A stretch of DNA of 64,000 nt from an uncultured Holophagales bacterium (lineage in GTDB: Bacteria; Acidobacteriota; Thermoanaerobaculia; Multivoradales; UBA5704): positions 1,888,001-1,952,000 of the forward strand of contig CAWJGT010000003.1 in the NCBI GenBank assembly GCA_963842525.1, written 5' to 3'. Position numbers and translations under genes: made by a program. Of the stretch, positions 19,021 to 38,884 are shown one piece after another (within the stretch, counting starts at the first letter, position 1; every line of letters begins with the position of its first letter). Under the pieces are notes generated by a model. That model did no database searches. It was not told the DNA's origin and was given only the letters and a program-made list of their open reading frames with translations.

Positions 19021-19056
19021 CGGACAGCACTGACATCCCTGACGACTCTGACATCT
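19021..19056 (+). promoter_or_regulatory. Four 9-bp direct repeats, candidate activator-binding site
   Basis: CGGACAGCA CTGACATCC CTGACGACT CTGACATCT at an exact 9-bp period, upstream of a -24/-12 element. Confidence 0.55.
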
Positions 19057-19096
19057 TCCCTGAATGGTCGTTCTTGCTTTCTTTTCTGCCTCTGAG

Positions 19097-19113
19097 TAGG
19101 CATGAGAGTTGCT
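19097..19113 (+). promoter_or_regulatory. Sigma54 (-24/-12) promoter
   Basis: TAGGCATGAGAGTTGCT: GG(19099-19100)-N10-GC(19111-19112), close to TGGCAC-N5-TTGCW. Confidence 0.75.
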
Positions 19114-19145
19114 CATTGCGAGTAGTAACAACCTAAGGAGAGATT

Positions 19146-19628
19146 ATGAGCAACTTCAACTTCCAACTCGGTTTCAACTGGCCCGCGACCCCTCAGAGCG
19201 GGGCGCTACCTCTCAAGTTGGCTCTTCAGACCTTCGACGGCACAACTCAGTCCGGCCCGAATTATAATTTCACGCCACAGTCAGATTATGTTTGCTTCAA
19301 TGCGCTTAACATGACTAGCGGTGCCAACATTAAAGACTATACCATCACCGGTGGTTCGATTACATTCAGCCCCGTGGGGTCGCAGCCGGCCGACTCTCCC
19401 TTCAACCTAACATCATTGCAGATCGGTGAGCTTGGACAAGCGATCGGAATGACGCAGTCGGATCCTACCTTGAATGGTTCGGGTCCGTACTGGGCTCCTG
19501 TTGTCCCACTTATGCAGGTGTACAACCCAGGAACTTACAGCTTTACCGTCACGCTGCTCGTTCAGAAAGGTTCTGCTCAACAAACCTTCGTGATCGACCC
19601 CGAGATGATTATCGAAAGTGCCGGCTGA
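19146..19628 (+). CDS. Small leaderless beta-rich hypothetical protein (C-terminal DPEMII; reminiscent of AidA/PixA or DP-EP proteins)
   Basis: SD TAAGGAG, lower GC than the flanks, GTYSFTVTL..FVIDPEMII; the family resemblance is inference. Confidence 0.75.
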   Translation: MSNFNFQLGFNWPATPQSGALPLKLALQTFDGTTQSGPNYNFTPQSDYVCFNALNMTSGANIKDYTITGGSITFSPVGSQPADSPFNLTSLQIGELGQAIGMTQSDPTLNGSGPYWAPVVPLMQVYNPGTYSFTVTLLVQKGSAQQTFVIDPEMIIESAG

Positions 19629-19631
19629 TGT

Positions 19632-21944
19632 TCAGGGATCCTTGTCGAGTCCCGCGATCAGGCGGTGATATCGGGCATCCGCACGGAGCCCCAGCAGCTC
19701 CGGGTCGTTCTTGACCTCCTCAACGGGCAGGTCGGCTCGCAGCGCCCGCTCGAGCGCTGCGAGCGCCTTCACACGCTGAGCGCAGACCTCATAGGCGACG
19801 GCCATACGGAACCGGGTGGTCGCTTCCTTGCCGGAGAGAGGTTCGAGCTTACCCAACTCCACCAACGCCTCGGCGAGGTCTCCGCGTTTGGCGAGGTACA
19901 GCGCCAAGCGGCTGCGGAGGGTCTGATCACCGGGCGTCGAGCGCAATTGTTCCTTGACGATTTGGATCGCCGTGAGGTACGCCTCGCGCGACCTTTCCTT
20001 CTTGTCCGGAGTCCAGCGGCATGCGTCGCCCAGATTGCCCCAGACCATGTAGTTGTTCGAGCCGCCCGGCATGTCGAGAGCCTTCTCGAAGGCCTCGACG
20101 GACTGTTGATAGAAGCCTTGAGAGAAATGGATCGTCCCGAGGTTGGCATAGAGAGTTGCATCGGATCGAATCTGGAGGGCCTTCTGGAACTGGGAGGCGG
20201 CCTCCGACAGATTCCCTTGCGTGTAATAGGCGACGCCGAGATTCCGGTACGCGATGAAACCGTCCGGAGCCAGCTCGATGCTCCGGCGGAAAGCCGCGAT
20301 GGCCTCATCCGCCCGGCCCATGCGCACGTAAAGCTTGCCGAGCCCATCGAAGTTCATCCTGTGAGGCTGGACCTCCGTCGCCTTCTTGAATGCCGCTTCC
20401 GCCTCTTTGAGCTTCCCCTGGGATTCGTGGATCCTGCCGCCGGCGTAGTAGGCATCGCCATTGGCCGGCTCGAGGACGAGAGCCCGTTCGATGTGCCGCA
20501 GGGCTTCATCGGGGCGCCCCGCGGATTCGAGCGCCAGTCCCAGGCTGACCTGCGCGGCGGCGAGATAGGGATCCAAGGTAACGGCGCGCTCCGCCATGGG
20601 TAAAGCCCGCTGCAGCCAGATCGGGTCCCGGCTGTCGCCTTGGAGCTTGAGCCAGTAGGCTTTCGCGAGCCCTGCATGAGCGGCCGCGTGTGTCTCGTCT
20701 TGGGCCAGGACCCTTTGGAAGCTGTCGATCGCGCGGTCAAGGTTCCCTTTTCTGTCGAACCGATCGAGATCGGCCAGCCCCTGTTGGTAGAGGGTATACG
20801 GCGTGGGCTGGACGAGCGGCGAGCTCAGCAGGTAGAAGGCGACGGTCGCCACGATCAAGAGGAGGGCGATCCCTGCCGCAGTGCGGATGCTGCGGCTGTG
20901 AGCTCTGTGCAGCGCACTCTCCTGGCCCGGCGGACCGTCCAACGACCGAGCAGGCTCGGCGGCGACATAGAGAGCGGCCGGCATGGGCTGACCGGCGGTG
21001 CTCGCGCGCGAGAACAGTGCCGGGGCCGGACCAGCCGGCGGCGCCTCGAAGATGGTCTTTTGATCGGACGGATCGACCTCACCGCGAGAGACCTGTGCTC
21101 CCGCCCAAGAGCCCGGTTGCGCTGCGGCAATCTGATCCAGCGCGACAGCCACTTCCACCGCGCTGCCCGGCCGATCGACCGGCTCCTTTTCCAGAAGCCG
21201 ATCGATCAGGTCCGAAAGCTCGTGCGGCACTCTGGGGCGGAGGCTCGACGCGGGTCGCTGCCGGAAGCTGCAGACGCGCGCGAGTGTGGCCGATGCGGTA
21301 TCGGCCCGAAAGGGTGCCACGCCGGTGACCATCTCGTAGAGAAGCGAGCCGAGGGAGAAGAGATCCGACCGGGCATCGAGGGGCAGCCCCATGGCCTGCT
21401 CGGGTGACATCGCGTAGGAGGTCCCGATGACCACGCCCGGCGCCGACAAGGTCGTCTCCTGCGCTTCGGGCTGGATCTGCTTGGCCACTCCGAAGTCGAG
21501 GATCTTGGCACGCCCGGCGAGGGTCACCATCACGTTGGGGGCCTTCAGATCCCGGTGGATGAAGCCGTGGGCATGCGCCTCGGCGAGCCCTTCGGCGATC
21601 TCGCGGCCCAGGCGCAGGGCATGCTGAGGATCCAGCGGACCTTCCCGCAGGAGCGCCTGGAGCGTCTGTCCGTCCACGAGCTCCATGACGATCCAGTCGC
21701 CTGCCTCCGTCTCTACGATGTCGTAGATGTGGACGATGGCTGGATGGTTCAGGTGCGCCACCGCTTCGGCCTCGCGGCGGAAGCGCTCCCTGCGGTTCGG
21801 ATCCTCGGTGGCAGCCGGGAGGATCTGCTTCAGGGCGACGGGGCGTTTCAGGCGTTCGTCCAAAGCGCGCCAGACGGCTCCCATGCCCCCGGATCCCAGG
21901 GGATCGATCAGACGGTACGGACCGATCTTCTCGTTGGACTGCAT
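19632..21944 (-). CDS. Hanks-type Ser/Thr kinase with TM helix and TPR repeats
   Basis: LGSGGMGAVW, VALK, HRDLKAPN, DFG, MSPEQ; TM AAGIALLLIVATVAFYLL; TPRs; ATG 21944 chosen as start. Confidence 0.93.
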   Translation of the reverse strand: MQSNEKIGPYRLIDPLGSGGMGAVWRALDERLKRPVALKQILPAATEDPNRRERFRREAEAVAHLNHPAIVHIYDIVETEAGDWIVMELVDGQTLQALLREGPLDPQHALRLGREIAEGLAEAHAHGFIHRDLKAPNVMVTLAGRAKILDFGVAKQIQPEAQETTLSAPGVVIGTSYAMSPEQAMGLPLDARSDLFSLGSLLYEMVTGVAPFRADTASATLARVCSFRQRPASSLRPRVPHELSDLIDRLLEKEPVDRPGSAVEVAVALDQIAAAQPGSWAGAQVSRGEVDPSDQKTIFEAPPAGPAPALFSRASTAGQPMPAALYVAAEPARSLDGPPGQESALHRAHSRSIRTAAGIALLLIVATVAFYLLSSPLVQPTPYTLYQQGLADLDRFDRKGNLDRAIDSFQRVLAQDETHAAAHAGLAKAYWLKLQGDSRDPIWLQRALPMAERAVTLDPYLAAAQVSLGLALESAGRPDEALRHIERALVLEPANGDAYYAGGRIHESQGKLKEAEAAFKKATEVQPHRMNFDGLGKLYVRMGRADEAIAAFRRSIELAPDGFIAYRNLGVAYYTQGNLSEAASQFQKALQIRSDATLYANLGTIHFSQGFYQQSVEAFEKALDMPGGSNNYMVWGNLGDACRWTPDKKERSREAYLTAIQIVKEQLRSTPGDQTLRSRLALYLAKRGDLAEALVELGKLEPLSGKEATTRFRMAVAYEVCAQRVKALAALERALRADLPVEEVKNDPELLGLRADARYHRLIAGLDKDP

Positions 21945-21963
21945 AGAGTGGAGCTGCTTGATT

Positions 21964-23598
21964 CTAACGCAAGGGCTGTGAAAAGGAAGGGCGGAGCCCA
22001 AGTTTCTTGATCCGCCTCTTCAGTCCCTCCGCCGAGACCTCGAGCTGTGCCGCCGCCTCGACCAGGCGGCCTCCGCTCCGCAGGAGCGCCTGCTCGATTT
22101 CGGGGCGCTCCAGGTCGGTGGCCTTGCGGGTACGGGAGCAGGCATCGATCAGGAGGTAGAGGGCGGCGCGTGAGATCCCGAGCTGCCCGGCCGCGGCCAC
22201 CGGCTCCCAGCGGTTCGCCCGCAGAGCCGCCACGAGCTCGTCGTCGGAGACCTCCTGGGGGCTGCGCCGGCGAGGGCCAGGCGCTCTCGGCGGCACGGTC
22301 TCCGGCGTGGGCAGGGCTCTGGCCGGCGGCCGGGTCTCGCCTGGGTACGGCACGAGGAGCCTCTCGATCTGCGAGCTGATGCGTACCTGGGCGGACCCGC
22401 GGCTCTCCACGGCGATGGAGCGGACGATATTGCGGAGCTGCCGGATGTTGCCGGGCCAGTCGAAGAGGGCCAGCCGGGCGACCAGAGAGGCGGGGAGCCA
22501 GGGCCGGCCCTCCGGGCCGGAGTCGGTGAGGCGGTGGGCCTCGCCCAGGGCTTCGAGCTCGCGGTGAAGGAAGTGGAGGAGCAGGCGCCCGATGTCGTCG
22601 CGGCGCTGGCGCAGAGGAGGAATGCGGATCTCATAGCCGCTCAGACGGTGGAGCAGGGGTGCGCGAAAGCGGCCGGAGGCGATGGCCGCCTCGAGATCGG
22701 AGTCGGTGGCCGCGATCGTCCGGACATCGACCCGCTGAATCTGCTCCGTCCCGACGGGCTGGATCTCGCCGTTTTCGAGTGCCCGGAGGAGGAGCGGCTG
22801 GACCTCCGGCGGGACCTCGCCGATCTCATCGAGGAAGAGAGTCCCGCCGTCGGCGCGGCTGAAATAGCCCCGCCGCTTCTGGTCGGCTCCGGTGTACGCC
22901 CCCTTGGCGGCTCCGAAAAGCTCCGATGCGGCGAGCGACGCTGGGATGGCACTCATATTGATGGCGAGATAGGGACGGTCGCGCCGCGCGCTCGCCTGGT
23001 GGATTGCCTGAGCCAGCAGCTCCTTGCCGGTGCCCGTCTCGCCGCGCAACAGCACCGGCACCTCCAGATCGGCGATCTGGCGGATCTGCTGGCGCAGCTC
23101 GAGTATCGGCTCGCTCTCGCCGATCAGGCCATAGCGAGGGAGGCCGGGCTCGATGACCGGCCGGAACCGGTGGAGGAGGAGGGCAACCCGGTTCGCCAGG
23201 AGGAGAACGACGCCGCGCTCGATCTCAGGATCGGTGAAGACCCGCTCGCCATGGATAGGCTCTCCTTCGGCGATCACGGAAATTGGTCTGTCCTGACAGG
23301 CCAGGCGGATTCCTCCAGCCGCTTCGGGCAGGAGGACCAGCGGGCGGCGGCTCAGGTGAGGATCTGCCAGGGGTTGCCGCCACGAGTCGCCGGGCTGGGC
23401 GAATGCGGGCTCGAGGCGCGACAGCCGCTCTTCACGGCCGGAGGACAGATCGAGAAGCGCAGCCCTCTCACCGACCCGCTGGATGTCGGGATGCGCCAGG
23501 ATCGTCAACCCGAGGACGGTGGGAGACGCCAGCTCATGCCGGCCGCTCCCTGAGCGGGTCTCGGCGTCCCGCCAGGGTTCACTTCTTTCGAAGGGCAC
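21964..23598 (-). CDS. Sigma54 enhancer-binding protein with two C-terminal HTH motifs
   Basis: GETGTGKE, ELFG..KGAYTGA, LFLDEIGE, WPGNIRQL; two Fis-like HTH segments; no receiver domain recognised. Confidence 0.93.
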   Translation of the reverse strand: MPFERSEPWRDAETRSGSGRHELASPTVLGLTILAHPDIQRVGERAALLDLSSGREERLSRLEPAFAQPGDSWRQPLADPHLSRRPLVLLPEAAGGIRLACQDRPISVIAEGEPIHGERVFTDPEIERGVVLLLANRVALLLHRFRPVIEPGLPRYGLIGESEPILELRQQIRQIADLEVPVLLRGETGTGKELLAQAIHQASARRDRPYLAINMSAIPASLAASELFGAAKGAYTGADQKRRGYFSRADGGTLFLDEIGEVPPEVQPLLLRALENGEIQPVGTEQIQRVDVRTIAATDSDLEAAIASGRFRAPLLHRLSGYEIRIPPLRQRRDDIGRLLLHFLHRELEALGEAHRLTDSGPEGRPWLPASLVARLALFDWPGNIRQLRNIVRSIAVESRGSAQVRISSQIERLLVPYPGETRPPARALPTPETVPPRAPGPRRRSPQEVSDDELVAALRANRWEPVAAAGQLGISRAALYLLIDACSRTRKATDLERPEIEQALLRSGGRLVEAAAQLEVSAEGLKRRIKKLGLRPSFSQPLR

Positions 23599-23630
23599 GC
23601 AACAAGTCTAACCGAGGGCTCGGAAAGACT

Positions 23631-26129
23631 CTACCAGGGCGGCGGCGTGCCCTCCGCCTCCGCCTCCACGTCCTCGCCCTCGCCGCCTTCGTCCTGTTCA
23701 GCCGCCGGCGGGGCCGGCTCCTCCTGCGGTCCGGGTTGGGACGGGGCGGCGCCCGGGGGGGCCGTCTTGCCGGGCATGTTCTCTCCCTCCTTGGGGATGT
23801 AGAACGCCTTCTGCTGGTACCAGGGGAGGCTGTTGATCGTCTGCCACTGGGAGCTGACCTCCTTGGCGGGCTCGGTGCCGGCGACGAAAGCCTCCTGGAT
23901 CGTCCTGCCACCGCCCTTGGCCAGCAGGCCGCTGTAGTACTCGATGTCCTTGAGCTGGACGCCCGGCGGCACCGGGAACGGCTCGTCCTTCTTCATCCAG
24001 CCGTTCTCGATCCCGTCCTCCGCGATCATCTTCCACATCGGCAGCGCAGCCACCGCGCCGCTCATCCCGTAGCCGAGCGGCTTCTTGGCGTCGTAACCGA
24101 TCCAGGTCAGGATCGTGTAGCGCGGCGTAAAGGCCACGAACCAGGCATCCGTGAAGTCGTTCGTCGTGCCGGTCTTGCCCGCGATGTTGATCGGCAGGCG
24201 CTTCAGCTCGTACGCCGTGCCGTGGTCGATCACGCCCTCCATCATGTGCGTCAGCACATAGGCGGTCTGCGGTGTCGTCGAGATGTAGGAGGCGGGGAAG
24301 TGCCGCTCCATCACGTGACCGTCCGGACCTGTCACCGTTTCGATCAGGTAGGGCTCGATGTGCGTGCCCAGGTTGGCGATCGTTGCATAGGCCGCGGCCA
24401 GCTCCATGGGCGTCAGGTCGGCCGCGCCCAGGGCGATGCTCGGATAGTTGGGCAGGCGCGAGCGGATGCCGCAGCGGTAGGAGAAGTCGATCACCCGCCG
24501 GCCGTTCACCAGGTCCCAGAGCTTGACCGCCGGGACGTTGATCGACTGCTCCAGCGCCCGCCGCAGGGTGACGATGCCGGCGTGCTTCTTGTAATAGTTC
24601 TCCGGCCGGTAGCTCATCCGGCCGTCGGCGCCCAGGAAATAGGTCGGCGCGTCGAGCAGCGTGTCAGACGGAGTCCACCCGGCCTCCAGGGCCGCGCCAT
24701 AGACGAAGGGCTTGAACGCCGAGCCCACCTGCCGGCGGGCCTGGGTGACGCGGTTGAACTTGTTGCGCTCGAAGTCCCAGCCGCCCACCATGGCGCGCAC
24801 CGCGCCGGTCTGGTTCTCGAGCACCACCGCAGAGGCCTCCATCCGGGGCTCCTGCTCCAGCATCAGACGGGGCGTGGCAGGCTGCGCCGGCGCATCGGCG
24901 GCCTTCTTGTCCCCCTTCTTCAGCTTCGGCTCCGGAACCTCGAGGCGGAACCAGGCGACCGCGCCGGGCTTGAGGACATCGTCCGGCTGCTTGCGGCGGG
25001 TCCAGGAGATCCCCTGGGCGTCGAGCGTGTAGACCTCGGACCCGATCTTCACCTGCGCGGTGGTCCGCCCGGATTCCAGCACGATTCCCTGATACCAGCG
25101 ACCCGGCACCGGCTTGCCGCTGCCCCAGGTGGGAAGCTGCTGTGAGGCCAGGTCCTCCGCCTTCAGGGTGGCGATGGGCCCGCGCCAGCCGCGCCGGTGG
25201 TCCATGCGCAGGAGCCAGCTCCGCACCGCCTTCTCGGCGGCGCGCTGGATCTGCGGATCGAGCGTGGTCCGCACCTGCAGGCCATCTTCGTAGAGGGCGG
25301 TCGCGCCGTACTTCCCTTCCAGGTACTTGCGGATGTCCTCGGCGAAGTAGGGGGCGGCCCTCTGCTCGGCCTGCTGCGTGGCCACCAGCAGCGGCTGGGC
25401 CAGGGCTTCCTCATACTTGGCCTGGCTGATGAACCGCTCCTCCAGCATCCGGCGCAGGGCGCGGTTGCGGTTCTTGAGCACCTGGTCGGGGGTGCGGTAC
25501 GGGCTGTAGCGGCTCGGCGCCGGGATGATGCCGACCAGGGTCGCCGCTTCGGCCAGAGTCAGCTTGGCGGCCGGCTTGCCGAAGTAATAGCGCGAGGCCG
25601 CCTCGACCCCGTAGTTGCCGTGGCCGATGTTGACCAGGTTCAGATAGAGGGTGAGGATCTGCTGCTTGCTGTAGTTCTTCTCCAGCTCGACCGCGACGAA
25701 GGCTTCCTCGATCTTGCGGCGCCAGGTGCGCTCGCGCGACAGGAACAGGCTGCGGGCGAGCTGCATGGTGATCGTCGAGGCGCCCTCGACCACCCGGCCG
25801 GCACGCAGATCGGTCAACGCCGCGCGCGCGACGCCCATGGCGTCGACCCCGCCATGATGGAAGAAGTTGCTGTCCTCGGAGGCGAGCACCGCTTGTTGGA
25901 GGATCGGCGGGATCTGCTCGGCCTTGAGCATCACCCGCCGTTCGCGGGCGAAGGTGGAGAAGACCGAGCCGTCCCGGGCGAAGAGCTGGGTCACCAGGCT
26001 GGGCGTGTAGCCGGCCAGCTTGGCATCGACGCGCGGCACGTGGATGGCGGCGGCCACGGCTACGCCGCCGATCGCGCCGACGAGCAGGGCGATGAGCACG
26101 GGCACGGTCCAGCGGATCAGGCGGCGCAT
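23631..26129 (-). CDS. Class A penicillin-binding protein (PBP1A family)
   Basis: EDSNFFHHGG, GASTITMQL, RKIEE, SAFK, SIN, KTGT; ATG 26129 chosen as start. Confidence 0.95.
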   Translation of the reverse strand: MRRLIRWTVPVLIALLVGAIGGVAVAAAIHVPRVDAKLAGYTPSLVTQLFARDGSVFSTFARERRVMLKAEQIPPILQQAVLASEDSNFFHHGGVDAMGVARAALTDLRAGRVVEGASTITMQLARSLFLSRERTWRRKIEEAFVAVELEKNYSKQQILTLYLNLVNIGHGNYGVEAASRYYFGKPAAKLTLAEAATLVGIIPAPSRYSPYRTPDQVLKNRNRALRRMLEERFISQAKYEEALAQPLLVATQQAEQRAAPYFAEDIRKYLEGKYGATALYEDGLQVRTTLDPQIQRAAEKAVRSWLLRMDHRRGWRGPIATLKAEDLASQQLPTWGSGKPVPGRWYQGIVLESGRTTAQVKIGSEVYTLDAQGISWTRRKQPDDVLKPGAVAWFRLEVPEPKLKKGDKKAADAPAQPATPRLMLEQEPRMEASAVVLENQTGAVRAMVGGWDFERNKFNRVTQARRQVGSAFKPFVYGAALEAGWTPSDTLLDAPTYFLGADGRMSYRPENYYKKHAGIVTLRRALEQSINVPAVKLWDLVNGRRVIDFSYRCGIRSRLPNYPSIALGAADLTPMELAAAYATIANLGTHIEPYLIETVTGPDGHVMERHFPASYISTTPQTAYVLTHMMEGVIDHGTAYELKRLPINIAGKTGTTNDFTDAWFVAFTPRYTILTWIGYDAKKPLGYGMSGAVAALPMWKMIAEDGIENGWMKKDEPFPVPPGVQLKDIEYYSGLLAKGGGRTIQEAFVAGTEPAKEVSSQWQTINSLPWYQQKAFYIPKEGENMPGKTAPPGAAPSQPGPQEEPAPPAAEQDEGGEGEDVEAEAEGTPPPW

Positions 26130-26250
26130 CGGACGCTGGGCGCCGGGCCGGGGCGGGGCGGAGGAACGGGCGGCGGACGGCGGATCGTATCTCACGGCTT
26201 CATTATAGAGGCGGTCTGGTGATACAACCTTGTCATTCCCGGAGGCGCGC

Positions 26251-26706: not shown

Positions 26707-26720
26707 ACATGGGTCGGCCC

Positions 26721-27413
26721 GGCGCTGACTGCGGTCGGGACGATGGTGACAGCGCCCAGCGGCTGGCCGGCCGCGATCCGGATGACGCTGACCGCGTGGA
26801 GCGGCTTGCTGACTCCGGTCCGCGAGCTGCCGACCGCGATTTGACTCTCGTCGACCACGATCTGGATGGCGCCGGCAGCAGTCAGTGAGCCGCTGACCAC
26901 GAACACCGGGCCGTCGACCGGGGACAATGAGGCGCTGACCGCTGTCATCGCGACGCTGACCGCGGTCCGAGAGCCGTTGACCGCGGTCGACGCGACGTTG
27001 TATGCGAACATTTAAGCGCTGGCTTCGAACGAAAGGCCGCTGTACGCGGTCAGCGAGGCGCGGAACGCAGTCAGAGAGATGTTGACTGCTGTCAGCAAGC
27101 TGTTGACCGGGGTCCGAGAGCCATTGACCGCAGTCAGAGAGGTGTTGACCGTGGTCAGTGGGCCGTTGACCGCGGTCCATGCGATCCAGACTGCTGTCAG
27201 CGTGGCGCGGAACGCGAACAACGTGACCCTCATCGCGAACAACGAGCCGCTGACAGCAGTCCGCCCGCCTGCGGCCGCAGTCAACGGAACCCTGAACGCG
27301 GGCAACGCCACGCCCATCGCGAACAGCGGCATCTGAAGAGAATACGACGAGCCGCGACTCGCGGTCCGCCCATAGCCGAACGCAGCCAGTGCGACCCTGA
27401 TCGCGGACAATGA
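26721..27413. repeat. 33-unit degenerate 21-bp tandem array without indels (consensus near GCCGCTGACCGCGGTCAGCGA)
   Basis: Register holds at 26721+21k, e.g. GACGCTGACCGCGGTCCGAGA (26952), GCCGTTGACCGCGGTCGACGC (26973), GCCGTTGACCGCGGTCCATGC (27162). Confidence 0.92.
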
Positions 27414-27487
27414 GGGCTCGAACGGAGTGGAGGGACGTAGGGATTTCGGCTCTGCCGATGTACGATCTCGTCGAGAGGAGCCAGGAA

Positions 27488-27727
27488 ATGGTCAGGAGCT
27501 ACACAGCCCGGTACACGAAGATCGAGAGTGGATACCTGGGCCAGCTCATCGAATGGCCGGAGGTGGTTACGGAAGGGGCGGACATTGAAGACTGCCGCTC
27601 GATGCTGCGGGATGCCCTCCACGAGATGATCCTCGCCTACCGGCAGCAGAGCAGGGAGATCCCCATCGGAAACGACCTCTTCGAGCCGGTCAGCGTCGAT
27701 CTGGATCATGTCCGTCAAACGGCGTGA
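27488..27727 (+). CDS. hicB: HicB-family antitoxin (short form)
   Basis: YTARYTKIESGYLGQLIEWPEVVTEGADIEDC..LRDAL. Confidence 0.85.
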   Translation: MVRSYTARYTKIESGYLGQLIEWPEVVTEGADIEDCRSMLRDALHEMILAYRQQSREIPIGNDLFEPVSVDLDHVRQTA

Positions 27728-27896: not shown

Positions 27897-27898
27897 CG

Positions 27899-29981
27899 GT
27901 GGTCCTTCTCGGTACAGACCTTCCGCACGGGGATCCGTTTCGCCTTGGCTCCCTGGCGGCCCGTCTCGGAGAATGGCCGCTGCTGCTCACTCTTGTGGGT
28001 CGGCAGCTCCAGGAATTGGTCAACGAGGACGGGCTTTCCCTGGGGCAGGCTCTCCAGGATGTCGAGAGTGCTCTCCAGGCCGGAGGACTGACGGCTTTCG
28101 ACCGGGAGGACACCAGGAGCCGACAACGGGCGGTGGCCTTGACCCTGGAGGCCAGCCTGGCCCGCCTGGCTGAGGCAGACCATCGGCGCTATGGCGAGCT
28201 TGCGATCTTTCCTGAGGACAGGGATATCCCCCTGTCGATTTTGGAGCGTCTCTGGGGAGCGAGGCCCTTCGAGGTCCGCAAGCTTTGCGAGCGGCTGCGT
28301 GGCCTCTCGCTCGATTTCTCCTATCTGCGGGCGAAGCTGAAGGCCACCGATATCAGCGCGCTGTTCGCGGACTATGCGCCGTGGAGTCGAGAGGACTGGG
28401 AGCTGAGGTTGATCGAGAGCGCCTTGCGGCTTTCGGCCCACGCCCTGACCGAAGACCCGGAGCAACTCGCGCCGCAGTTGCTTGGCAGGCTGCTGGACCG
28501 GCCGGAGCCCGGTGTTGTGCGTCTTCTTCGGGAAATCGACGAGTCGCATCGACTTGTCGGGTTTCGGCCTAGAAAAGCAAGCCTCGCGCCTCCCGGCGGC
28601 CCGTTGGTCCATACCCTCAGTGGTGCCGGTCACGTGACCGCGATTGCGGTTTTGGACGGCCGGCGGGCCGTCGCGGGCTCAGAAGACGGGAAGCTCCGGC
28701 TGTGGGACCTGGAGAGTGGTGAGATCCTGCGGACTCTCGAAGGGCACGCCGCTGAAGTCAGTCACTTGACGGTGCTGAGCGGGGGACGCCTCCTCTCAGG
28801 CTCCTGGGATGGGACGGTACGACTCTGGGATACAGACGAGGGTCGAATCCTTCGTACGTTCGAGAGCTCACTCCCGGACAGGATCAGTGCGCTGGCGGTC
28901 GTGGGGAACCGATGGATTCTCTCATGCTCGATCCTGGGGATGCTGCACCTTCTGGACATGGGAAGCGGCGAGACTCTGCAAGAGCTTGGTGACCCGGCGG
29001 ACGGGGGGACCACGGCACTGGCAGCGCTGGATGAAAGGCGGGCGGTCTCAGCCACCGAGGACGGAGTGTTGGTCTTGTGGGATGTCCAAAGTCGCACGGC
29101 TCTACGCGTTTTCCAAGGTGCCGTCCGTGGAATCACGGCTTTGGCGGTGTTGAACGAAGAGCGGGTGCTTTCGGGTTCGGCGGACGGGAATTTGACTCTG
29201 TGGGACCTGAAGAGCGGCAGGGAGCTCGAGTTGCCGAGGCCACACGGGCGAGATCACGGGACTGGCGTGGTTGAGCGGTCAGAGAGCGATTTCCGGCTCG
29301 CGGGATGGGACACTGCGGTTGTGGGACCCGGAGAAGGGGGAGACCCTTCGCAGGTTCGAAGGTCACACACTTGGTGTCTCTGCTCTTGCAGTATTGGATG
29401 GCGGACGTGCCGTCTCAGGCTCGCTGGACGGCACTCTCCGGGTGTGGGATCTCTCTGGCAGAGAGACTCCTCGCAGCCTAGAAGATCATCCCGACTATGT
29501 TACCTCGCTGGCGTTCCCGGATAGTACCCAAGTCCTGACAGCATCTCGGGACGGCTCGTTCCGGTTGTGGTACTTGGAGAGGGGTGCGCTCCTACGCGCT
29601 TTTGACAGGGCTGCCACCGGAGGCGTTTGGGCACTGACGGCCTTAAGCGGCCGGCGCATCCTTTCGAACTCGGAGAATTGGGCGCTCCAAGTCTGGAATC
29701 TCCAAACCTTACAAACTCTCCGTGCTCTCGTGGGCCACAGCAGCAGGGTCATGGCCTTGTCGGTTATGGACGAGCGACACGTTGTCTCAGGCGCGTTGGA
29801 TGGAACTCTGAAATTGTGGAATGTGGAAAGCGGCGAAATAGTCCGGACCCTCGTGGGCCATACCAACTCGGTCATGACTGTGGCGGCGGTGGAGGGTCAG
29901 CTCGCCGTTTCAGGCTCTGACGACGGGACACTCCGGCTTTGGGATCTGAAAACCGGCCAGATGGGCGGCGGGTCGGCATAG
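27899..29981 (+). pseudogene. Decayed NB-ARC/APAF-1-like WD40 protein (NTPase missing, frameshifted, 3' truncated)
   Basis: GEWPLLL (GxP motif), LAIFPED winged-helix segment, YLRAKL..LFADY helical segment, many GH..SGS.DGT.RLWD repeats; frame switch near 29230-29238. Confidence 0.8.
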
Positions 29982-30346
29982 ACGAAGAGGTTCTTCGGGC
30001 GGGCCAGGGCAGAGTCGAGAAGGCCAGGGTCCCGGAGGCCCTCCGTGCCCCCGTGCTCGGCGATCAGCATCCGGTGGACGGTCAGGACGACCTGCGTCAG
30101 GAGCCACTCCGGCTCGGAGCTCGACTTGGCGAGCTCGTGCAATACGTCGCGGTGCTCGCGCATCACGCGCTCGGCGGCTCGTACCTGGCGCACAAAGCTC
30201 TCGTCGTAGGGCGTGATTTGGAAGCCGTCCGGGGTCTCAACGAGGTAGAGCGTGTCTCCCTTCTTCACCTTCAGGCGCGTGAGTACCTCCTTGGGCAGCA
30301 CCACCCCGGTCGAGCTTCCTACAGTTGTCAGCTTGAGAGCAATCAT
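29897..30346 (-). pseudogene. AbrB/MazE antitoxin fused in-frame to a truncated Doc toxin
   Basis: LTTVGSSTGVVLPKEVL..LHELAK then EPEWL..HGG..GLRDPGLLDSALARP; Fic motif absent. Confidence 0.85.
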
Positions 30347-30431: not shown

Positions 30432-32423
<1,992 letters not shown>

Positions 32424-32465
32424 GCGCGAGAGGATACGGCAGGGGCTGAGTTGGCGGGGCGACGT

Positions 32466-32882
32466 TTATCGAATGAAGCGTATCGGGCAAACCTCGGCTT
32501 TGGCGATAGCGTCAAGCTCGTGGTGGTCGCTGGTCACCAGAGTCGCCCCTTCCCGGATCGTCAGGGCGAGCGCGAAGCAGTCGGCTAGCGAAACACGGCG
32601 CCACTCGGCCTTGAGCTTGCCTGCGAGTTGCCAAACATCCGAGGCCAGCGTCTCGAGAAGCTCGAGGTCATATTCGGCAAAAATCGTCTCGATGCTATTC
32701 GCGTCCTCCATGTTGCCGCGCCGGTAGAGATCGTAGTAGACCTCGCAGGCATTGACCGCATGAATGAGACAGCGGTTTGTGGGTTCTTGCAGCAGCTCCT
32801 CTACCACTTCGGCACCAGGCTCGTCCTCCAGAAGGGCAATGAAGGCACAAGCGTCGAAGACGAACACCGGTTCAGCGGGCAA
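32466..32882 (-). CDS. VapC/PIN toxin
   Basis: VFDACAFIA, NACEVYY, SLADCFALA, LVTSD. Confidence 0.88.
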   Translation of the reverse strand: MPAEPVFVFDACAFIALLEDEPGAEVVEELLQEPTNRCLIHAVNACEVYYDLYRRGNMEDANSIETIFAEYDLELLETLASDVWQLAGKLKAEWRRVSLADCFALALTIREGATLVTSDHHELDAIAKAEVCPIRFIR

Positions 32883-33219
32883 ATTTCCGCTCCTCGATTT
32901 CGATCTCCTCCTGCTTGCGCCTTGCGAGCTCTTCGCTCCCTGAAGTCAGCCCGCGGCCGGCACCCCGCAGGCGCTGCAGGCGCGCACGGCGTTCGTCCGT
33001 GGACAGTTCCCGAAACGACCGTGGATCCCTGGCCAGCTCGGCTGCCAGAGCCGTCAAGCTTCCGCGGGTTTGTGGCGGAGCCGTGACGTGCTCCTCCGTC
33101 CCGCTCTGCTGCGGCACGAGCACAATGAGCTCCGCCGGCCCCGAAGGAATCGTCTCAGGGAACACGATCGTCGCGCGGTGATTCTCCGGGATGATGACCT
33201 GCATTTTGTGGGCCTGCAT
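32872..33219 (-). CDS. Putative antitoxin partner of the PIN toxin
   Basis: Overlaps the PIN gene start; SD AGGAG before ATG 33219; IPSGPAELIVL; acidic tail. Confidence 0.65.
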   Translation of the reverse strand: MQAHKMQVIIPENHRATIVFPETIPSGPAELIVLVPQQSGTEEHVTAPPQTRGSLTALAAELARDPRSFRELSTDERRARLQRLRGAGRGLTSGSEELARRKQEEIEIEERKFAR

Positions 33220-33367
33220 CGCTGGGTCTTCTCCTCGTTTTGAATCCACCCTCGCAGCCTCGCTCACAAGGCGGGCTGGGCTCACTAGCTGCTACGGGAG
33301 TATGCCACGACCTCGGCCCTTGGGCGAATGGCGCAAGAGGCTTGGGGCCGTGCTAGCATGGTGAGCT

Positions 33368-33959
33368 ATGAGCCAGGGGACGGCAGCCAAATCGCCCTCC
33401 GCGCCTGAGCTTTCGCTCGACGAGTGGTTCGCTCTGCCCGAGGATGAGCCCGGCGAGCTCGTGGATGGACGCCTCGAGCAAGAGGAGGTGGCGGACTATC
33501 TTCACGAGCTTCTGGTCGCGCTCCTGGGCCGGAGTCTCGGGAACTGGATCTTCCCGCAAGGGGGGCTGGTCGCCGGCTCCGGGGGCCAAGCTCGCGATCG
33601 GTTCCAGACGCGGCCGGAAACCCGATCTCACAGTCTACTTGCCGGGCAGCCGTCGTCCACCGGCCCGCGGCCTGATCCGCGTCCCGCCCGATATCGCCAT
33701 CGAGATCGTCTCCCCGACGCCCCGCGACGGCCGCCGCGACCGGGTGGAGAAGCTGGCAGACTACGCGGCCTTCGGCGTGGCCTGGTACTGGCTCCTCGAC
33801 CCGCAGCTCCGCAGTCTGGAAGTCCTCGAGCTCGACCCACAGGGAAGTTATCTCCACGTCCTGGGTGCCACCACCGGCACGCTGGAGAAGGTCCCGGGCT
33901 GTGACGGGCTGACGCTCGATCTCGACGCGCTCTGGGCGGCGATCGACAAGCTCGAATAG
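33368..33959 (+). pseudogene. Uma2/DUF820-family endonuclease, frameshifted
   Basis: LPEDEPGELVDG in one frame; RKPDL, PDIAIEIVSP, YAAFGVAWYWLLDP in the next; shift at G5 run 33581-33585 (could be a sequencing error). Confidence 0.8.
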
Positions 33960-34011
33960 CACCACCCCACTTCCCGCGGGAAAACTGTACCTCTTTGCGG
34001 CTCCCGACGCG

Positions 34012-34040
34012 GATGGCCGCCTTTCCGGCGGACCTGCGTC
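34012..34040 (+). promoter_or_regulatory. Candidate ECF sigma promoter, copy 1
   Basis: GATGGCCGCCTT-N11-TGCGTC; same boxes and spacing as 38856-38884 on the minus strand. Confidence 0.7.
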
Positions 34041-34171
34041 TATTCAGGTGAGGGCCGCCGAGTGGCTGACGGTGGACCCAAGAGAAGATAGAGAGAAAAG
34101 TCGAACGCCGCGCCGTCTCAGCAAGGGGCCGCTCATGTCGGGCGGCTTCGACATAGGGAGAGGAGGAGTCA

Positions 34172-34615
34172 ATGAACCATACCATCGAGGTGTCGTTTGT
34201 GGGCACTCGCGTGCATGCCGAGCCCAATCCCTTGCCAACGCGTGGAAACACTCAACAACCACCCCAGACCGTCATCAGTCCTGGAGACACAATAACTTGG
34301 GACTGGAGCCAGGCCGCGCCAGGAAGGAATCTGCAGGTGGTTTTCGTGGAAATGGGTCTTCTGGAGCAGGATGGCAGTGTTGGAAGCAACCAGCCGGTCG
34401 ACCCCCTGGGTCCCTTAAGCAGGCTTTCGCTTGGTGCCAACTTGATCGAGGGTACCGTCCATTCGAACGTCCCCCAGAACGTCAGTCAAGCCCAGCGGTT
34501 CTTCTATAGAATTTTTGAAAACGGCAATCCTCTTGTTTGGGATAACCCGGTGCCGGGGAAGAGCGACCCGAGGATGAACGGCGGCGGCATCGACATCCCG
34601 AACACGCCTCCGTAG
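34172..34615 (+). CDS. Small leaderless beta-rich hypothetical protein (PGDTITW, cupredoxin-like strand pattern)
   Basis: Strong SD GAGGAGGAG, lower GC, no signal peptide. Confidence 0.75.
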   Translation: MNHTIEVSFVGTRVHAEPNPLPTRGNTQQPPQTVISPGDTITWDWSQAAPGRNLQVVFVEMGLLEQDGSVGSNQPVDPLGPLSRLSLGANLIEGTVHSNVPQNVSQAQRFFYRIFENGNPLVWDNPVPGKSDPRMNGGGIDIPNTPP

Positions 34616-34628
34616 GGTATGCTACCGA

Positions 34629-37385
34629 CTAGCTCGCGTCCTTGCCAGACCCGCGGGAGTCGAGGAGTGCCAGGAAATCCGGGTCCTCCTTGAGTGAGCG
34701 GAACTCGGGGATCGTGAACCACTCCCGCCGGATTCTCTTCTCGAAGGCCAGCTTGGCGTAGAAGACGGCCGACACGTGGTCTCCCAGGAGGGCATAGATC
34801 TGTGCGGCCTGATGGAGGATCTGGGCTTCTTCTGGCATCTGTTTGACCGACTCGTCGACGAGACGTTCCGCGTCCACCCGCTGGCCCAGGCGCGCGAGAC
34901 ACTGGGCATGGAGCATGCGGGTGTGTGCATCCAGCGGAGTTGACGGGTTGGCCAGCTCCCTTGCCAGAGTGCGATAGAGGCTTTGCGCTTCGTCCATCTC
35001 GCCCTGGGCTTCGAGCGCGGTGGCCAGGTTGAAGCGGGTCTGGCGGTGGTCGGGCTCGAGAGCGAGAGCCCTCCGGTCAGCCGTGGCGGCCGCGGCGTAG
35101 TCGCCAAGAAGGAAACGGACGAAACCAAGGTTCGTGAGGTTAGGCCGCGTCGGCCGGGTGCGGATCAGATCTTCGTAGAGCGCCGCGGCGCGATTGAGGT
35201 CTCCGAATTGGACTTCCAGCGCCGCCACGTTCTCCCACACGACCTGGTTGTTCGGCTGCTCCGCCAAGAGCGGTTCAAGGCGTTGCCGCGCGGCGTCGCT
35301 CTCGCCCAGCCGGAGCTCCAGTGTCGCCACTTCCAGAATCTTGCGCCAGGTGGGCCGCCGCTGGGCGACTTCGTCCTTCACCCGTCGAGCCTCATTCAGA
35401 TCTCCTTGTGTTTCTAGCAGGTCGGCCTTGGCGCTCAGTACGCGGATGTCGCCGGGAGCCAGACTCTCCAATCGCGCCAACGTGGCACCGGCGGCATCCA
35501 GACGGTTGCCTTCGAGCTCGATTCGGAGGCGGGTGAAGGTAGGTGCCGGATCGAAGGGAGAGATCGCCTCGGCCGGTTCTACAAACGCCAAGGCGCGATC
35601 GATGGCCCCCTGGTTGCGTGCGATGCCCGCAGCAAGCAGATACGCACCGACGAGACCGGGTGACGTTTGAAGCAGAGCGTCCAACCGAGCGAGCTCGTCA
35701 TTTCCGAGGCGTTTGCCGGCATCGACTCGGCGTTCGAGCTCGATGTAGGCGGAATAGTCCTGGGGTCTCACCTGGCTGCCGCGCGACCCCCGCCGGGGCC
35801 GATAATCGGGGTAGAGCTGTTGCAGGCTGCCCCGCACTCCGTCTGCAAGCTGATAAGTGTTCTCAATTCCAACCGGGACTTCGAAGGGCCCGACCGTGCC
35901 CAGGGCCTCGCCTCCGCGCTTGCGGAGGCGCCGGAAGATCACCTGACACCAATCCCCCCGGCAGTTGAGAATGGGCAGGAGCACTTCGTCAGCCTCGGTG
36001 GAGCGCAGCCTTTCCGCCGTGGACCCACTCCCCTCTTCCTGCTCGGGTGGGTCGAGGGGCTGTAGACCTTCGAGCGAGATGAGAGTGGAAAGGATGGCTT
36101 CGATCACCTCGGACGTGACGAAGGCGAGCTCAGGAGTGTCTCCCACCAAGATCGCCGCCGGTCGCAGGACTGCTATCTTCAGAGGGGGTGCTGCAAAGGG
36201 CCAGAGCCTAAAGGCAAGAGCAAAAACGAAAAGAAGGATGACCGCTAGCACTCCGGCGAGGAGGCTCATTTGGAGCGTCTTTATCCGGCGCCCGCGGCGG
36301 AACGCCGGTGACGTCGGCGCCGTGCCCGATTCGAGGTCGGACAACAACTGCGCCGCGCTCGCATAGCGCTCCGCCGGGTCCTTGGCCAGCGCCCGGTCCA
36401 CCACCCGGGCCAGTTCCGGCGGTACGTCCGGCCGGACTTTCTCGAGCGGCTTGGGCTCCTGGGTCAGGATCGAGGAGACCACCGCCTCCATGCTCTCGCC
36501 CCCGAAGGGCCGCCGGCCGGCAACCATTTCGTAGAGCAGCACCCCGAGCGACCAGACGTCGGTGCGGCAGTCCACCGCCTCACCGCGGGCCTGCTCGGGC
36601 GACATGTAGGCAGGCGTCCCCCAACTCGCTCCAGTACGGGTGAGGGAGACCTCTTCGCCTTCCAGCCGGGCGATGCCGAAGTCGAGGATCTTCACCTCGC
36701 CCCGCCGGGTCAGCATGACGTTGGCGGGCTTGATGTCGCGGTGGGTGATCCCCGCCTCGTGAGCACAAGCCAGACCCCGCGCCACCTGGATCGCTATCTC
36801 CCTGGCCTCCGCGAGCGGCAACGGTCCGCGCCTGATCCGCTTTCGTAGGGTCCCGCCCTCGTACAGAGCCAGGACGATATAAAGCCGGCCTTCGCTTTCG
36901 CCGACGTCGTGGACAGTACAGAGGTTGGGGTGGTCCACGGCCGAGGCGGCGCGTGCCTCGCGGAGGAACCGCTCTTTCGCCCTGCGGTCGCGGCTGTACT
37001 CCGGCGGCAGGATCTTGACGGCCACGCGGCGCCCGAGCCGCGTGTCTTCCGCCTCGTAGACCGTCCCCATGCCGCCGCCGCCAATTTCACGGAGAAGCCG
37101 GTACGGACCCACCTGCTGGCCGGAGAGATCGGTCTCACCCTCCTCCTCGTCAGTATCCCCGGCGAGGAGGTCCGGAGCGTACTCGCCGGCCGGTGTGCCG
37201 AGGAAGCCGCCGGCTTGCGCATCCGCTTCCAGGACGGACTCCACCTCGGCGCGCAGGTCCGGGTCGCCGGCGCAGGCTTGATCGAGGAGAGCACCCCGCT
37301 CCGCGGGAGGGAGGTCCAGAGCCACGTCAAGGATCGCCTCGATCCGCCGCCAACGGGTGACATCCACCGGCGGGATCGGCTTCAT
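34629..37385 (-). CDS. Ser/Thr kinase with TM helix and TPR repeats (ECF-associated type)
   Basis: N-terminal RWRRIEAILDVALDL..ACAGDPDLRAEVE, GGGGMGTVY, HRDIKPAN, DFG, YMSPEQ; TM segment; TPRs. Confidence 0.94.
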   Translation of the reverse strand: MKPIPPVDVTRWRRIEAILDVALDLPPAERGALLDQACAGDPDLRAEVESVLEADAQAGGFLGTPAGEYAPDLLAGDTDEEEGETDLSGQQVGPYRLLREIGGGGMGTVYEAEDTRLGRRVAVKILPPEYSRDRRAKERFLREARAASAVDHPNLCTVHDVGESEGRLYIVLALYEGGTLRKRIRRGPLPLAEAREIAIQVARGLACAHEAGITHRDIKPANVMLTRRGEVKILDFGIARLEGEEVSLTRTGASWGTPAYMSPEQARGEAVDCRTDVWSLGVLLYEMVAGRRPFGGESMEAVVSSILTQEPKPLEKVRPDVPPELARVVDRALAKDPAERYASAAQLLSDLESGTAPTSPAFRRGRRIKTLQMSLLAGVLAVILLFVFALAFRLWPFAAPPLKIAVLRPAAILVGDTPELAFVTSEVIEAILSTLISLEGLQPLDPPEQEEGSGSTAERLRSTEADEVLLPILNCRGDWCQVIFRRLRKRGGEALGTVGPFEVPVGIENTYQLADGVRGSLQQLYPDYRPRRGSRGSQVRPQDYSAYIELERRVDAGKRLGNDELARLDALLQTSPGLVGAYLLAAGIARNQGAIDRALAFVEPAEAISPFDPAPTFTRLRIELEGNRLDAAGATLARLESLAPGDIRVLSAKADLLETQGDLNEARRVKDEVAQRRPTWRKILEVATLELRLGESDAARQRLEPLLAEQPNNQVVWENVAALEVQFGDLNRAAALYEDLIRTRPTRPNLTNLGFVRFLLGDYAAAATADRRALALEPDHRQTRFNLATALEAQGEMDEAQSLYRTLARELANPSTPLDAHTRMLHAQCLARLGQRVDAERLVDESVKQMPEEAQILHQAAQIYALLGDHVSAVFYAKLAFEKRIRREWFTIPEFRSLKEDPDFLALLDSRGSGKDAS

Positions 37386-37972
37386 CCGGGGCCTTGGCCG
37401 CCGAGGGCCTGGAAGAGGAAGGCTCGGGCCTTGCGCCAGTCGCGCCGCACCGTCCGCTCCGATGTCCCCATCGCCTCGGCGGTCTCCTCCTCGGTCAGCC
37501 CAGCGAAGAAGCGTAGCTCCACGAGTTGGCTCAGACGCTCGTTGAGAGCCGCGAGCGACGTCAGAGCACGATCCACGGCGAGGACCTCGACGACGCGTGC
37601 CTCCGCATCCGACTCCCCACCTAGGCGCAACTCGTCGAGCGCGATCCGCACGTCCTCGCCGCCTCGCTTCTTCGCCATACGCCGGCGGGCGGAATCCACC
37701 AGGATGTGACGCATGGCAAGGGCGGCCACCGAGAGGAAATGGGAGCGGTCCTCCCAGGTGGTGCCCTGATGGTCCACCAGCTTGAGATAGGCCTCATGGA
37801 CCAGAGCCGTGGTGGTGATCGTCTGCCCCGGCCGCCGGTGCCGGAGCTGGATGCGTGCCATGGCGCGGAGCTCGTCGTAGACCAGGACCATCAGCCTTTG
37901 CGCAGCACTGCCATCCCCCTGGCGCGCTGCGGCGAGGAGGCCGGTGATCTCTCCTGTGGACGTCGAGTCCAT
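37382..37972 (-). CDS. ECF sigma factor, STK-associated (TIGR02999/ECF43-like)
   Basis: EITGLL, VYDELRAMA, TITTTALVHEAYLKL, MRHILVDSAR..KRGG, VELRFFAGLT, TVRRDW; ATGA overlap with the kinase. Confidence 0.92.
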   Translation of the reverse strand: MDSTSTGEITGLLAAARQGDGSAAQRLMVLVYDELRAMARIQLRHRRPGQTITTTALVHEAYLKLVDHQGTTWEDRSHFLSVAALAMRHILVDSARRRMAKKRGGEDVRIALDELRLGGESDAEARVVEVLAVDRALTSLAALNERLSQLVELRFFAGLTEEETAEAMGTSERTVRRDWRKARAFLFQALGGQGPG

Positions 37973-38063
37973 GGCTCCCAGAGTTTTCGAGGACTCTGGG
38001 AAGAATATCCGCCGCCCGGCGGGAATTCAAGCCGGGCGGCGGCGGGCAGGGAGGTGGGGCGGG

Positions 38064-38798
38064 CTAGAAGGTGAATGAGGTCATCAGTGCCCAGCCGAAC
38101 CGTCCCTCCTTCTTGAACCTCACCGCGGTCTCGCCAGATGGGAGCTCCTTACCTTCCTTCAGGCCGTCGCCGAGAACCTGGACGCTCGGGTCGAACGACA
38201 GACCGATTCCAACGTTCACGCTGGCTGATGCTTGGGGGTCTTTTCGGAATCCCCACATGACTCCCACGGCGAGGGAGTCGATTGCGTTGTTGTCGCCGCT
38301 CTGCAGGGCGACGAAAGGGCCGAAACCCCTGAGCGGAGGCTCGGGCGTTTGGCCTTGGCCGGCTTTATCTTTACACCAAGCCGAAGGCGTTGCAGCCGGA
38401 TCCCTGGCTTTCTCCATCTGATTGGCCGCCTTCTTCTTCTGATAGTCGCGCCAGCACCCCACCTTATCGCCGGCCAGGAATACGTGCATCTCCAGGAACA
38501 GTTGCGGGCGCAAGTCGGCCTCTTCATCGACTCGCACGATGCCGCCTTCGATGGCGCCGTCGTCCCCCTCTGTGCCCCCGACGAGCGAGGCCTTCTCGAC
38601 GGCACGGTAACCTCCAAAGCCGCCCATCACGCCGATCCCGGCACCCCACTTCAGTCCCAGGAAGTCGTTGGTCGCCTCTTCCATCTTGGTGGCCATCTCC
38701 ATTTCCATTTGAGTCTGACCCTGCGCCGCCCCGTAGCCACCGATCAGCATCGTCAGTAGGCAAACAAAGATTCGACACCTTCGGCTCGTTCGCTGCAT
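38064..38798 (-). CDS. Exported hypothetical protein, possibly an outer-membrane beta-barrel
   Basis: SD AAGGAGG, signal peptide, amphipathic strands, C-terminal WALMTSFTF. Confidence 0.7.
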   Translation of the reverse strand: MQRTSRRCRIFVCLLTMLIGGYGAAQGQTQMEMEMATKMEEATNDFLGLKWGAGIGVMGGFGGYRAVEKASLVGGTEGDDGAIEGGIVRVDEEADLRPQLFLEMHVFLAGDKVGCWRDYQKKKAANQMEKARDPAATPSAWCKDKAGQGQTPEPPLRGFGPFVALQSGDNNAIDSLAVGVMWGFRKDPQASASVNVGIGLSFDPSVQVLGDGLKEGKELPSGETAVRFKKEGRFGWALMTSFTF

Positions 38799-38855
38799 GG
38801 TGCTCCTCCTTCGGCGAGAGAGGCCAGTCCGGCATGGACGGTCCTCTCTTCTGCT

Positions 38856-38884
38856 GACGCAAGAACTCGCCGAAGGCGGCCATC
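38856..38884 (-). promoter_or_regulatory. Candidate ECF sigma promoter, copy 2
   Basis: Minus strand GATGGCCGCCTT-CGGCGAGTTCT-TGCGTC, about 60 bp before ATG 38798. Confidence 0.7.

Follow-up and report, generated by a model that had tools for sequence, protein, structure and literature searches.

Sigma factors of extracytoplasmic function group 43 (ECF43) are activated by kinases, and their targets and signals are known for only a few species. In the parts of the reports drawn on here, an adjoining gene for a Hanks-type Ser/Thr kinase is described as a hallmark of the group (PMC13147305), QTTA or STTA with a phospho-threonine as its signature in sigma region 2.2 (PMC13147305, PMC8999054), and the kinase PknS as an 83-residue N-terminal extension followed by a kinase domain, a transmembrane segment and periplasmic tetratricopeptide repeats (TPRs; PMC13147305). 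The described pairs are EcfK–PknS of Xanthomonas citri and EcfP–PknT of Vibrio parahaemolyticus. A second route into transcription runs through bacterial enhancer-binding proteins (bEBPs), the activators of sigma54, which in the NtrC type respond to two-component phosphorylation. The FHA-domain bEBPs of Myxococcus xanthus, reportedly treated by Jelsbak et al. in 2005, share with the case presented here the idea of Ser/Thr kinases feeding into bEBPs. Here we analyse a stretch of 64,000 nt (64 kb; GC 0.676) from contig CAWJGT010000003.1 of an uncultured Holophagales bacterium (positions 1,888,001 to 1,952,000), hereafter the window, which carries two gene cassettes, A and B. In each, a transcription activator gene lies upstream of a gene for a receptor-like Ser/Thr kinase, and a gene for a small leaderless protein faces the kinase gene tail-to-tail; the activator is a bEBP in cassette A and an ECF sigma factor in cassette B.

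An open reading frame (ORF) map and a Pfam scan, which we used for the gene order and domains of both cassettes, gave the following arrangement. In cassette A, the bEBP gene (21964..23598, − strand) is followed by the gene for kinase A (19632..21944, −), and small A (19146..19628, +; 160 residues) converges on the latter with stop codons 3 bp apart. In cassette B, the ECF sigma gene (37382..37972, −) is followed by the gene for kinase B (34629..37385, −), whose start overlaps the end of the sigma gene by 4 bp, and small B (34172..34615, +; 147 residues) converges on it with stop codons 13 bp apart. This shared layout of activator, kinase–transmembrane–TPR gene and convergent small gene had been proposed in a preliminary description of the same DNA and is borne out here, as is its account of the small genes as short (147–160 codons), lower in GC, preceded by a strong Shine–Dalgarno sequence and free of a signal peptide. 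Small A has a GC of 0.526 (0.615 at the third codon position, GC3) and small B of 0.572 (GC3 0.669), against a GC3 of about 0.9 in neighbouring housekeeping genes, and in both the third codon position is still the GC-richest in the coding frame. The Shine–Dalgarno sequences read from the DNA, AAGGAGAG for small A and GGGAGAGGAGGAG for small B, end 4 and 3 nt 5′ of the ATG, respectively, and neither protein contains a hydrophobic segment (maximum Kyte–Doolittle 19-residue mean 0.72 and 0.66). Both kinases combine a Pkinase domain with intact catalytic motifs, a single hydrophobic segment near residue 374 and C-terminal TPRs that close with a TPR_END_plus module (NCBIfam). The kinases match kinase models of PADLOC, but solely by their catalytic domain, which makes no case for a known defence system.

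On balance, and with modest conviction, we favour a reading in which the window encodes two transmembrane pathways that are independent of each other and respond to one signal each. In each of them, a Hanks-type receptor kinase would sense a periplasmic signal through its TPR domain, and the activated kinase would phosphorylate the transcription activator encoded just upstream of its own gene. Once activated, this factor would turn on a dedicated promoter in front of the gene that converges on the kinase gene and codes for a small cytoplasmic beta-sandwich protein. What we observed directly is how the genes are ordered, which domains and motifs are present and that cassette A shows synteny; that phosphorylation takes place, that the promoters are used and what the small proteins do biochemically is what we infer. 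The mechanism proposed for cassette B is put forward because it follows known ECF43 biology, and the kinase-to-bEBP step in cassette A only because the adjacency of the two genes is conserved.

The sigma factor of cassette B is of the kinase-associated type, matching PF07638 at 2e-49 in Pfam and TIGR02999 with 208.7 bits (cutoff 126) in NCBIfam, two models that we take to correspond to group ECF43. In an alignment made by eye, its residues 53–60 in sigma region 2.2 read TTTALVHE in place of the DAEDxxQE of other sigma factors, so that an uncharged, Thr-bearing TTTA motif occupies this position. Kinase B has the architecture described for PknS: an N-terminal extension of about 90 residues (1–94), a Pkinase domain (95–348), a transmembrane segment near 372–394 and a predicted periplasmic region with TPRs at about 650–900. 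As far as the accounts of EcfK–PknS and EcfP–PknT go, cassette B thus shares with these pairs a kinase-associated ECF sigma beside a transmembrane kinase, the N-terminal extension, the cytoplasmic kinase domain, the periplasmic TPRs and the uncharged, Thr-bearing region 2.2 motif. With the model match, the adjacent Hanks kinase and the region 2.2 motif in place, cassette B is typical of ECF43/PknS-type pairs. If EcfP and EcfK are taken as analogues, the sigma factor would depend on the kinase for its activity and would bind core RNA polymerase only once a threonine of the TTTA motif is phosphorylated. It differs from the described pairs in its candidate targets: the known ECF43 regulons comprise a type VI secretion system cluster and polymyxin-resistance genes, whereas the candidates here are a 147-residue leaderless beta protein and a 244-residue secreted protein.

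Both candidates are preceded by the same promoter-like motif, GATGGCCGCCTT-N11-TGCGTC. One copy (34012..34040, +) precedes the start codon of small B by 132 bp; the other (38856..38884, −) is found 58 bp 5′ of the start codon of the 244-residue ORF (38064..38798, −), which precedes the ECF gene. These are exactly two copies of the 29-nt motif in 64 kb, without a mismatch, each before a gene start flanking the ECF–kinase pair. Its spacing would fit a −35/−10 pair, and the regulon of cassette B would likely consist of small B and the 244-residue protein. The latter has a signal-peptide-like N terminus and ends in SFTF; judged by eye, it probably resides in the envelope or outer membrane, and it is, after small B, the second candidate target of the sigma factor. 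No sigma70-type promoter was found upstream of small A or small B, and the presumed 5′ leader of small B shows no unusual amount of structure (z = −0.42). Between the 244-residue ORF and the ECF gene lies a terminator-like hairpin (38009..38022, −), overlapped by a weak sigma70-like pair, TTGAAT-17-TATTCT, seen by eye. Also by eye, the segment just before the ECF start (37973–38030, −) contains an 8-bp inverted repeat, CCCAGAGT...ACTCTGGG, with its 3′ arm running into a GGGAG ribosome-binding site.

In cassette A, the activator combines a Sigma54_activat domain (PF00158, 1e-60) with HTH_8 (1e-12 in Pfam), and the Walker A sequence GETGTGKE, the GAYTGA loop and LFLDEIGE are all present, giving it the AAA+ domain, loop and helix–turn–helix of a sigma54 activator. 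It shares with NtrC-type bEBPs the AAA+ activator core, an N-terminal regulatory domain and a C-terminal helix–turn–helix. It differs from NtrC-type and FHA-type bEBPs in that its 157-residue N-terminal domain is not a receiver and not a recognisable FHA or GAF domain, and in that its partner is a conserved neighbouring Hanks kinase. The family of this N-terminal domain comprises at least 368 proteins: a search returned 368 relatives, and all NCBI organism names among the best 120 of the 368 belong to the Thermoanaerobaculia. An FHA-like look of the domain is an impression by eye. In cassette A, the non-receiver domain would be the target of the kinase, and the bEBP would act on a −24/−12 promoter of small A; in a literature search we found no description of a Hanks kinase controlling a sigma54 activator through a non-receiver N-terminal domain. 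Kinase A itself carries the HRD, DFG and VALK motifs and, unlike kinase B, has no N-terminal extension. Although its longest ORF extends to 22001, translation probably begins with the ATG at 21944, which follows the bEBP stop by 19 nt; this choice is supported by the alignment with the start of the homologous kinase at locus L001 (see below). In the numbering of the long ORF, the single transmembrane segment covers residues ~375–392, followed by the predicted periplasmic TPR domain.

A word-based search returned just one relative of small A, whereas a HMMER search of 1.84 billion representatives gave 43 matches at E ≤ 1e-3, 16 of them below 1e-10. We aligned 37 of the 43; the six set aside are four long proteins of Ig-like, cadherin or repeat type (P0037, P0038, P0050 and P0052) and two that match the N-terminal half only (P0041 and P0044). 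Residues P85, D151, P152 and E153 are invariant across the alignment, and all 37 proteins carry the C-terminal sequence DPEM(I/V)V, with D151–P152 lying 9 residues from the C terminus of small A. A genome scan with a pattern built from an 8-sequence alignment of the family found seven fitting stretches, two of which were confirmed, giving two loci (L001 and L002); both small genes match the family hidden Markov model (HMM), one at 82 and the other at 53 bits. A kinase–transmembrane–TPR gene adjoins the small gene in both. At L002, from a Thermoanaerobaculia metagenome-assembled genome (MAG), the two genes are convergent with 13 bp between the stops, and an alignment of the kinase with kinase A runs collinearly over 661 residues, sensor domain included, at 50% identity. 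At L001, from a Pyrinomonadaceae MAG, the two genes are in tandem, the kinase directly upstream and 63 bp separating it from the small gene; this kinase is 32% identical to kinase A over 797 residues and collinear over its full length. The neighbourhood expected from the window was therefore recovered as far as an orthologous kinase beside the small gene is concerned (2/2 loci), and it was not recovered at L001 in the convergent orientation or the activator. Just upstream of the L001 kinase is a small ORF (1940–2404, +) of no known family with a signal-peptide-like start, MRLCTLRLVRTCLACLALSCLAG.

A further link comes from P0069, a 704-residue protein annotated as 'TPR protein' in a Thermoanaerobaculia MAG, which is a chimera of bEBP and kinase. 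Its residues 1–189 correspond to bEBP residues 1–190 (70% identity) and its residues 190–704 to kinase A residues 252–785 (55%), so that most of the AAA+ and kinase domains are missing. Whether P0069 is a natural deletion or an assembly join, it joins both orthologues, which means that the bEBP and kinase genes are adjacent and co-oriented in another genome too. With kinase and small A paired at L001 and L002, and bEBP and kinase paired in P0069, cassette A is, judging from these sequences and a small sample, a conserved module of Acidobacteriota-like genomes, recurring in relatives from soil. With three genes and one evident promoter target, this compact unit would make a clean test system for kinase-to-bEBP signalling.

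The candidate promoter of small A is a sigma54-type −24/−12 element, AGGCATGAGAGTTGCT (19098..19113, +), with GG-N10-GC, TTGC and the correct spacing, 33 nt before the ATG. At L002, a sigma54-type sequence of the same geometry, TGGCGTACGCCTTGCA, precedes the start codon of the small gene by about 35 nt. Some 45–75 bp upstream of the −24 element, tandem 9-bp repeats containing GAC(A/G) occupy 19023..19055 (+), in three overlapping copies at 9-bp spacing, and GAC-rich direct and inverted repeats occur at a similar distance at L002. We infer from these that the repeats may form an enhancer bound by the bEBP. Counts of TGACA/TGTCA half-sites 5′ of the two sigma54 promoters (window and L002) were too few to be meaningful, and an Rfam scan of 17000–41000 gave no match. 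The best match to the sigma54 consensus in the window is elsewhere: GGGCACCCCGCTTGCA (40946–40961, −), with one mismatch, about 108 bp upstream of a DJ-1/PfpI gene (40254–40838).

The composition of the small genes could also be read quite differently, as that of recently acquired or orphan ORFs that landed downstream of kinases and escape their regulation. Their GC and GC3 are far from those of the genome, and word-based searches give few relatives (one for small A, four for small B). Yet the A family is real, with its 43 matches, its kinase neighbour is kept across two acidobacterial classes, and elements of the alternative-sigma type are positioned before both small genes; we regard orphan status as the least probable of the explanations considered. 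The designation of the cassettes as inserts in the preliminary description holds in part: the small genes deviate in GC, and the 244-residue ORF does so less clearly, whereas the other genes do not clearly deviate and the bEBP has relatives 70–82% identical in the same bacterial class. The small gene of L002 (7611–8129) has a GC3 of 0.68 against 0.88 for its kinase, and that of L001 0.87 against 0.92, so that low GC, present at L002 and not at L001, may characterise some members of the family rather than point to recent transfer. A tblastn search of both small proteins against plasmids gave no match, and the window contains no paralogue of either.

Are the two small proteins related to each other? 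By sequence, no relation was detected: BLASTP gave no match, hhalign a probability of 0.2%, and an HMM cross-search no match. AlphaFold2 (AF2) models of both are all-beta (small A, pLDDT 90 and pTM 0.84; small B, pLDDT 73.9 and pTM 0.74, built from 5 sequences only), and in both the invariant C-terminal tail, DPEM(I/V)V in the A family and GGGID-P-TPP in the B family, is disordered. A Foldseek search of the small B model against the PDB gave only three matches at E ≤ 1e-3, all of them SO1698 (best E 4e-4 with probability 1.0; TM-score 0.37–0.43). For small A, no match reached E ≤ 1e-3; SO1698 holds ranks 3, 4, 7, 8 and 10 (E 0.04–0.05, TM-score 0.32–0.50) and the PixA structure 4lzk (4lzk_B) rank 2 (E 0.037, TM-score 0.28). 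The comparison of predicted folds thus brought out two all-beta models that both retrieve SO1698 weakly, and no sequence homology.

SO1698, which ranks first among PDB folds for small B and recurs high in the list for small A, is a DP-EP protein (PF08985, DUF1888) and reportedly a self-cleaving Asp-Pro 'aspartic peptidase' of Shewanella oneidensis. The names of its PDB mutants place the cleavage motif at D116–P117, near the C terminus of chains of up to 122 residues, which parallels D151–P152 of small A; small A may self-cleave at this invariant pair in the manner of SO1698. The B family has D141-x-P143 instead (D-I-P in small B, not D-P), and SO1698 differs further in that no Pfam match was obtained at E up to 10 and the TM-scores are only 0.3–0.5. 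PixA/AidA proteins (PF12306) resemble the small proteins in being small, leaderless, beta-rich and strongly regulated signalling outputs. In the portion of the report used here, Bnr1/AidA of Burkholderia cenocepacia is such a strongly regulated quorum-sensing output (PMC9060813). They differ in that 4lzk_B matches small A only, and weakly, without a Pfam match or a clear 4lzk-like fold, and in having LuxR-type regulators rather than a kinase with a bEBP or ECF sigma. A PDB sequence-profile search with both small families gave nothing meaningful. Language-model look-alikes in the Atlas scored 0.87–0.94, with recognition values below the level that the tool regards as reliable; for both small proteins they include clusters annotated in part as DP-EP, with PF08985 on 11–17% of members, and for small A also an AidA/PixA cluster (score 0.87). 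The same DP-EP-annotated cluster, of 136 residues and 54 members, was retrieved by both. The peptide motifs from which a DP-EP or AidA/PixA likeness had first been suggested (PGDTITW and GxYxFTV..DPxxII) are present, and the likeness is echoed by these look-alikes and by the weak Foldseek matches, though not by Pfam. Small A and small B belong to two separate unannotated families, for which a remote link to the DP-EP/PixA beta-sandwich proteins is plausible but unproven. Both families are new to Pfam, NCBIfam and PADLOC, as is the 244-residue protein, and the invariant Asp-Pro of the A family would suggest SO1698-like autoproteolysis; should the two prove structurally related, this would suggest that receptor Ser/Thr kinases of Acidobacteriota-like bacteria have such proteins as a general class of output.

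The lack of homology bears on whether the two cassettes have anything to do with each other. They may be unrelated units that look alike by chance; what resembles a recurring system would then, in cassette B at least, be a visual coincidence. Such genomes commonly carry Hanks kinases equipped with TPR sensors as well as small lineage-specific genes, no homology between the small proteins was detected, the activators are of different classes, and the kinases are 42% identical in the catalytic domain and otherwise show generic kinase/TPR similarity only. Against chance, both small genes are low in GC, have a strong Shine–Dalgarno sequence and end 3–13 bp from the kinase stop; both proteins are predicted to be all-beta, share SO1698 as top PDB relative and retrieve the same Atlas cluster; and the low GC3 recurs in the L002 small gene. 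We consider coincidence unlikely. The wider claim of the preliminary description, one recurring system with an interchangeable activator, survives as far as the parallel layouts go and falters on the small proteins and kinases just compared. No locus was seen with an A-family gene and an ECF sigma, or a B-family gene and a bEBP, so the claim remains an analogy between two modules.

The part of cassette A that recurs most faithfully is the pair of kinase and small gene, found in the window and at both other loci, including L001 with no activator nearby. This invites the alternative that the small proteins are not mere outputs but interact physically with the kinases, whether as ligand, as substrate or as feedback modulator; their tails could, for instance, dock into the TPR superhelix, or the proteins could bind to the cytoplasmic kinase portion or to the juxtamembrane part. 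Short terminal peptides are frequent binding partners of TPR domains, and both families carry an invariant tail that is disordered in the models; we retain the ligand idea as a rival for these reasons. The predicted topology conflicts with it: the TPR region follows a single transmembrane segment with positive residues on the kinase side and is thus predicted to be periplasmic, whereas the small proteins have neither a signal peptide nor a hydrophobic segment. This argues against the small protein as the ligand of the TPR domain, as originally suggested, and we judge a physical partnership of any of these kinds improbable, though worth bearing in mind. A bolder version, in which DP-EP-like small proteins are dedicated, co-evolving partners of receptor kinases, would have the periplasmic TPR domain read either the 9-residue C-terminal peptide set free when small A, once induced, cleaves itself, or the protein itself when damaged kin cells release it; the result would be an autoinduction or danger-sensing loop that relies on the bEBP in cassette A and on the ECF43 sigma in cassette B. 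We offer this as speculation, with very little expectation that it is right.

Returning to two independent pathways in which the small proteins are outputs, several observations weigh against that reading or limit it. The fold links to DP-EP and PixA are weak (TM-score 0.26–0.50, E 4e-4 to 0.05), and at E up to 1–10 neither small A, small B nor any of the 37 aligned A-family members matches a Pfam family, the PF08985 and PF12306 models included. The N-terminal domain of the bEBP, the presumed kinase target, matches no family in the Pfam and NCBIfam scans and no PDB sequence. The sigma54 consensus is not enriched in the window (15 matches at ≤2 mismatches, 18 expected), so the weight of the small A site lies in its position and in one orthologous locus. 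Upstream of small B, the generic ECF promoter GAAC-N14–19-GTC has no match. The statistic for the 29-nt motif (at ≤3 mismatches, an expectation of 0.13 and 0 of 100 shuffles with two or more copies) is inflated and overstates the case, because the motif was defined after being seen. The four B-family relatives from the word-based search all lie on short contigs; the L002 contig ends within the kinase, upstream of which an activator would lie; and the 8.4-kb L001 contig carries neither a bEBP nor an ECF sigma, nor a good −24/−12 site before the small gene. The idea that each small gene has a promoter of the class of its activator fits small A, with its sigma54 site, and not small B as a generic ECF promoter, the shared 29-nt motif standing there instead. 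That each cassette looks like a self-contained sense-and-respond unit, its small gene matched by promoter, is supported, for A by the synteny of kinase and small gene together with the conserved sigma54 site, and for B by the ECF43 hallmarks together with the motif on both flanks.

The cassettes are flanked by genes for SpoVG, Prs, L25, Pth, S6, L9, PBP1A, UvrB and UvrC, with toxin–antitoxin and WD40 genes between them. Small mobile-type genes are dense among these housekeeping genes (27410–27727, 29897–30346, 32466–33285, 33444–33959 and 43771–44034): they are a UPF0150/HicB-like gene, a MazE–Fic/Doc fusion-like ORF, a PIN gene with an upstream partner, a Uma2 endonuclease gene and a BrnT toxin gene. 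Two overlapping ORFs in different frames (27899–29524 and 29271–29981, both +) each encode WD40 repeats and may represent a frameshifted or disrupted WD40 gene.

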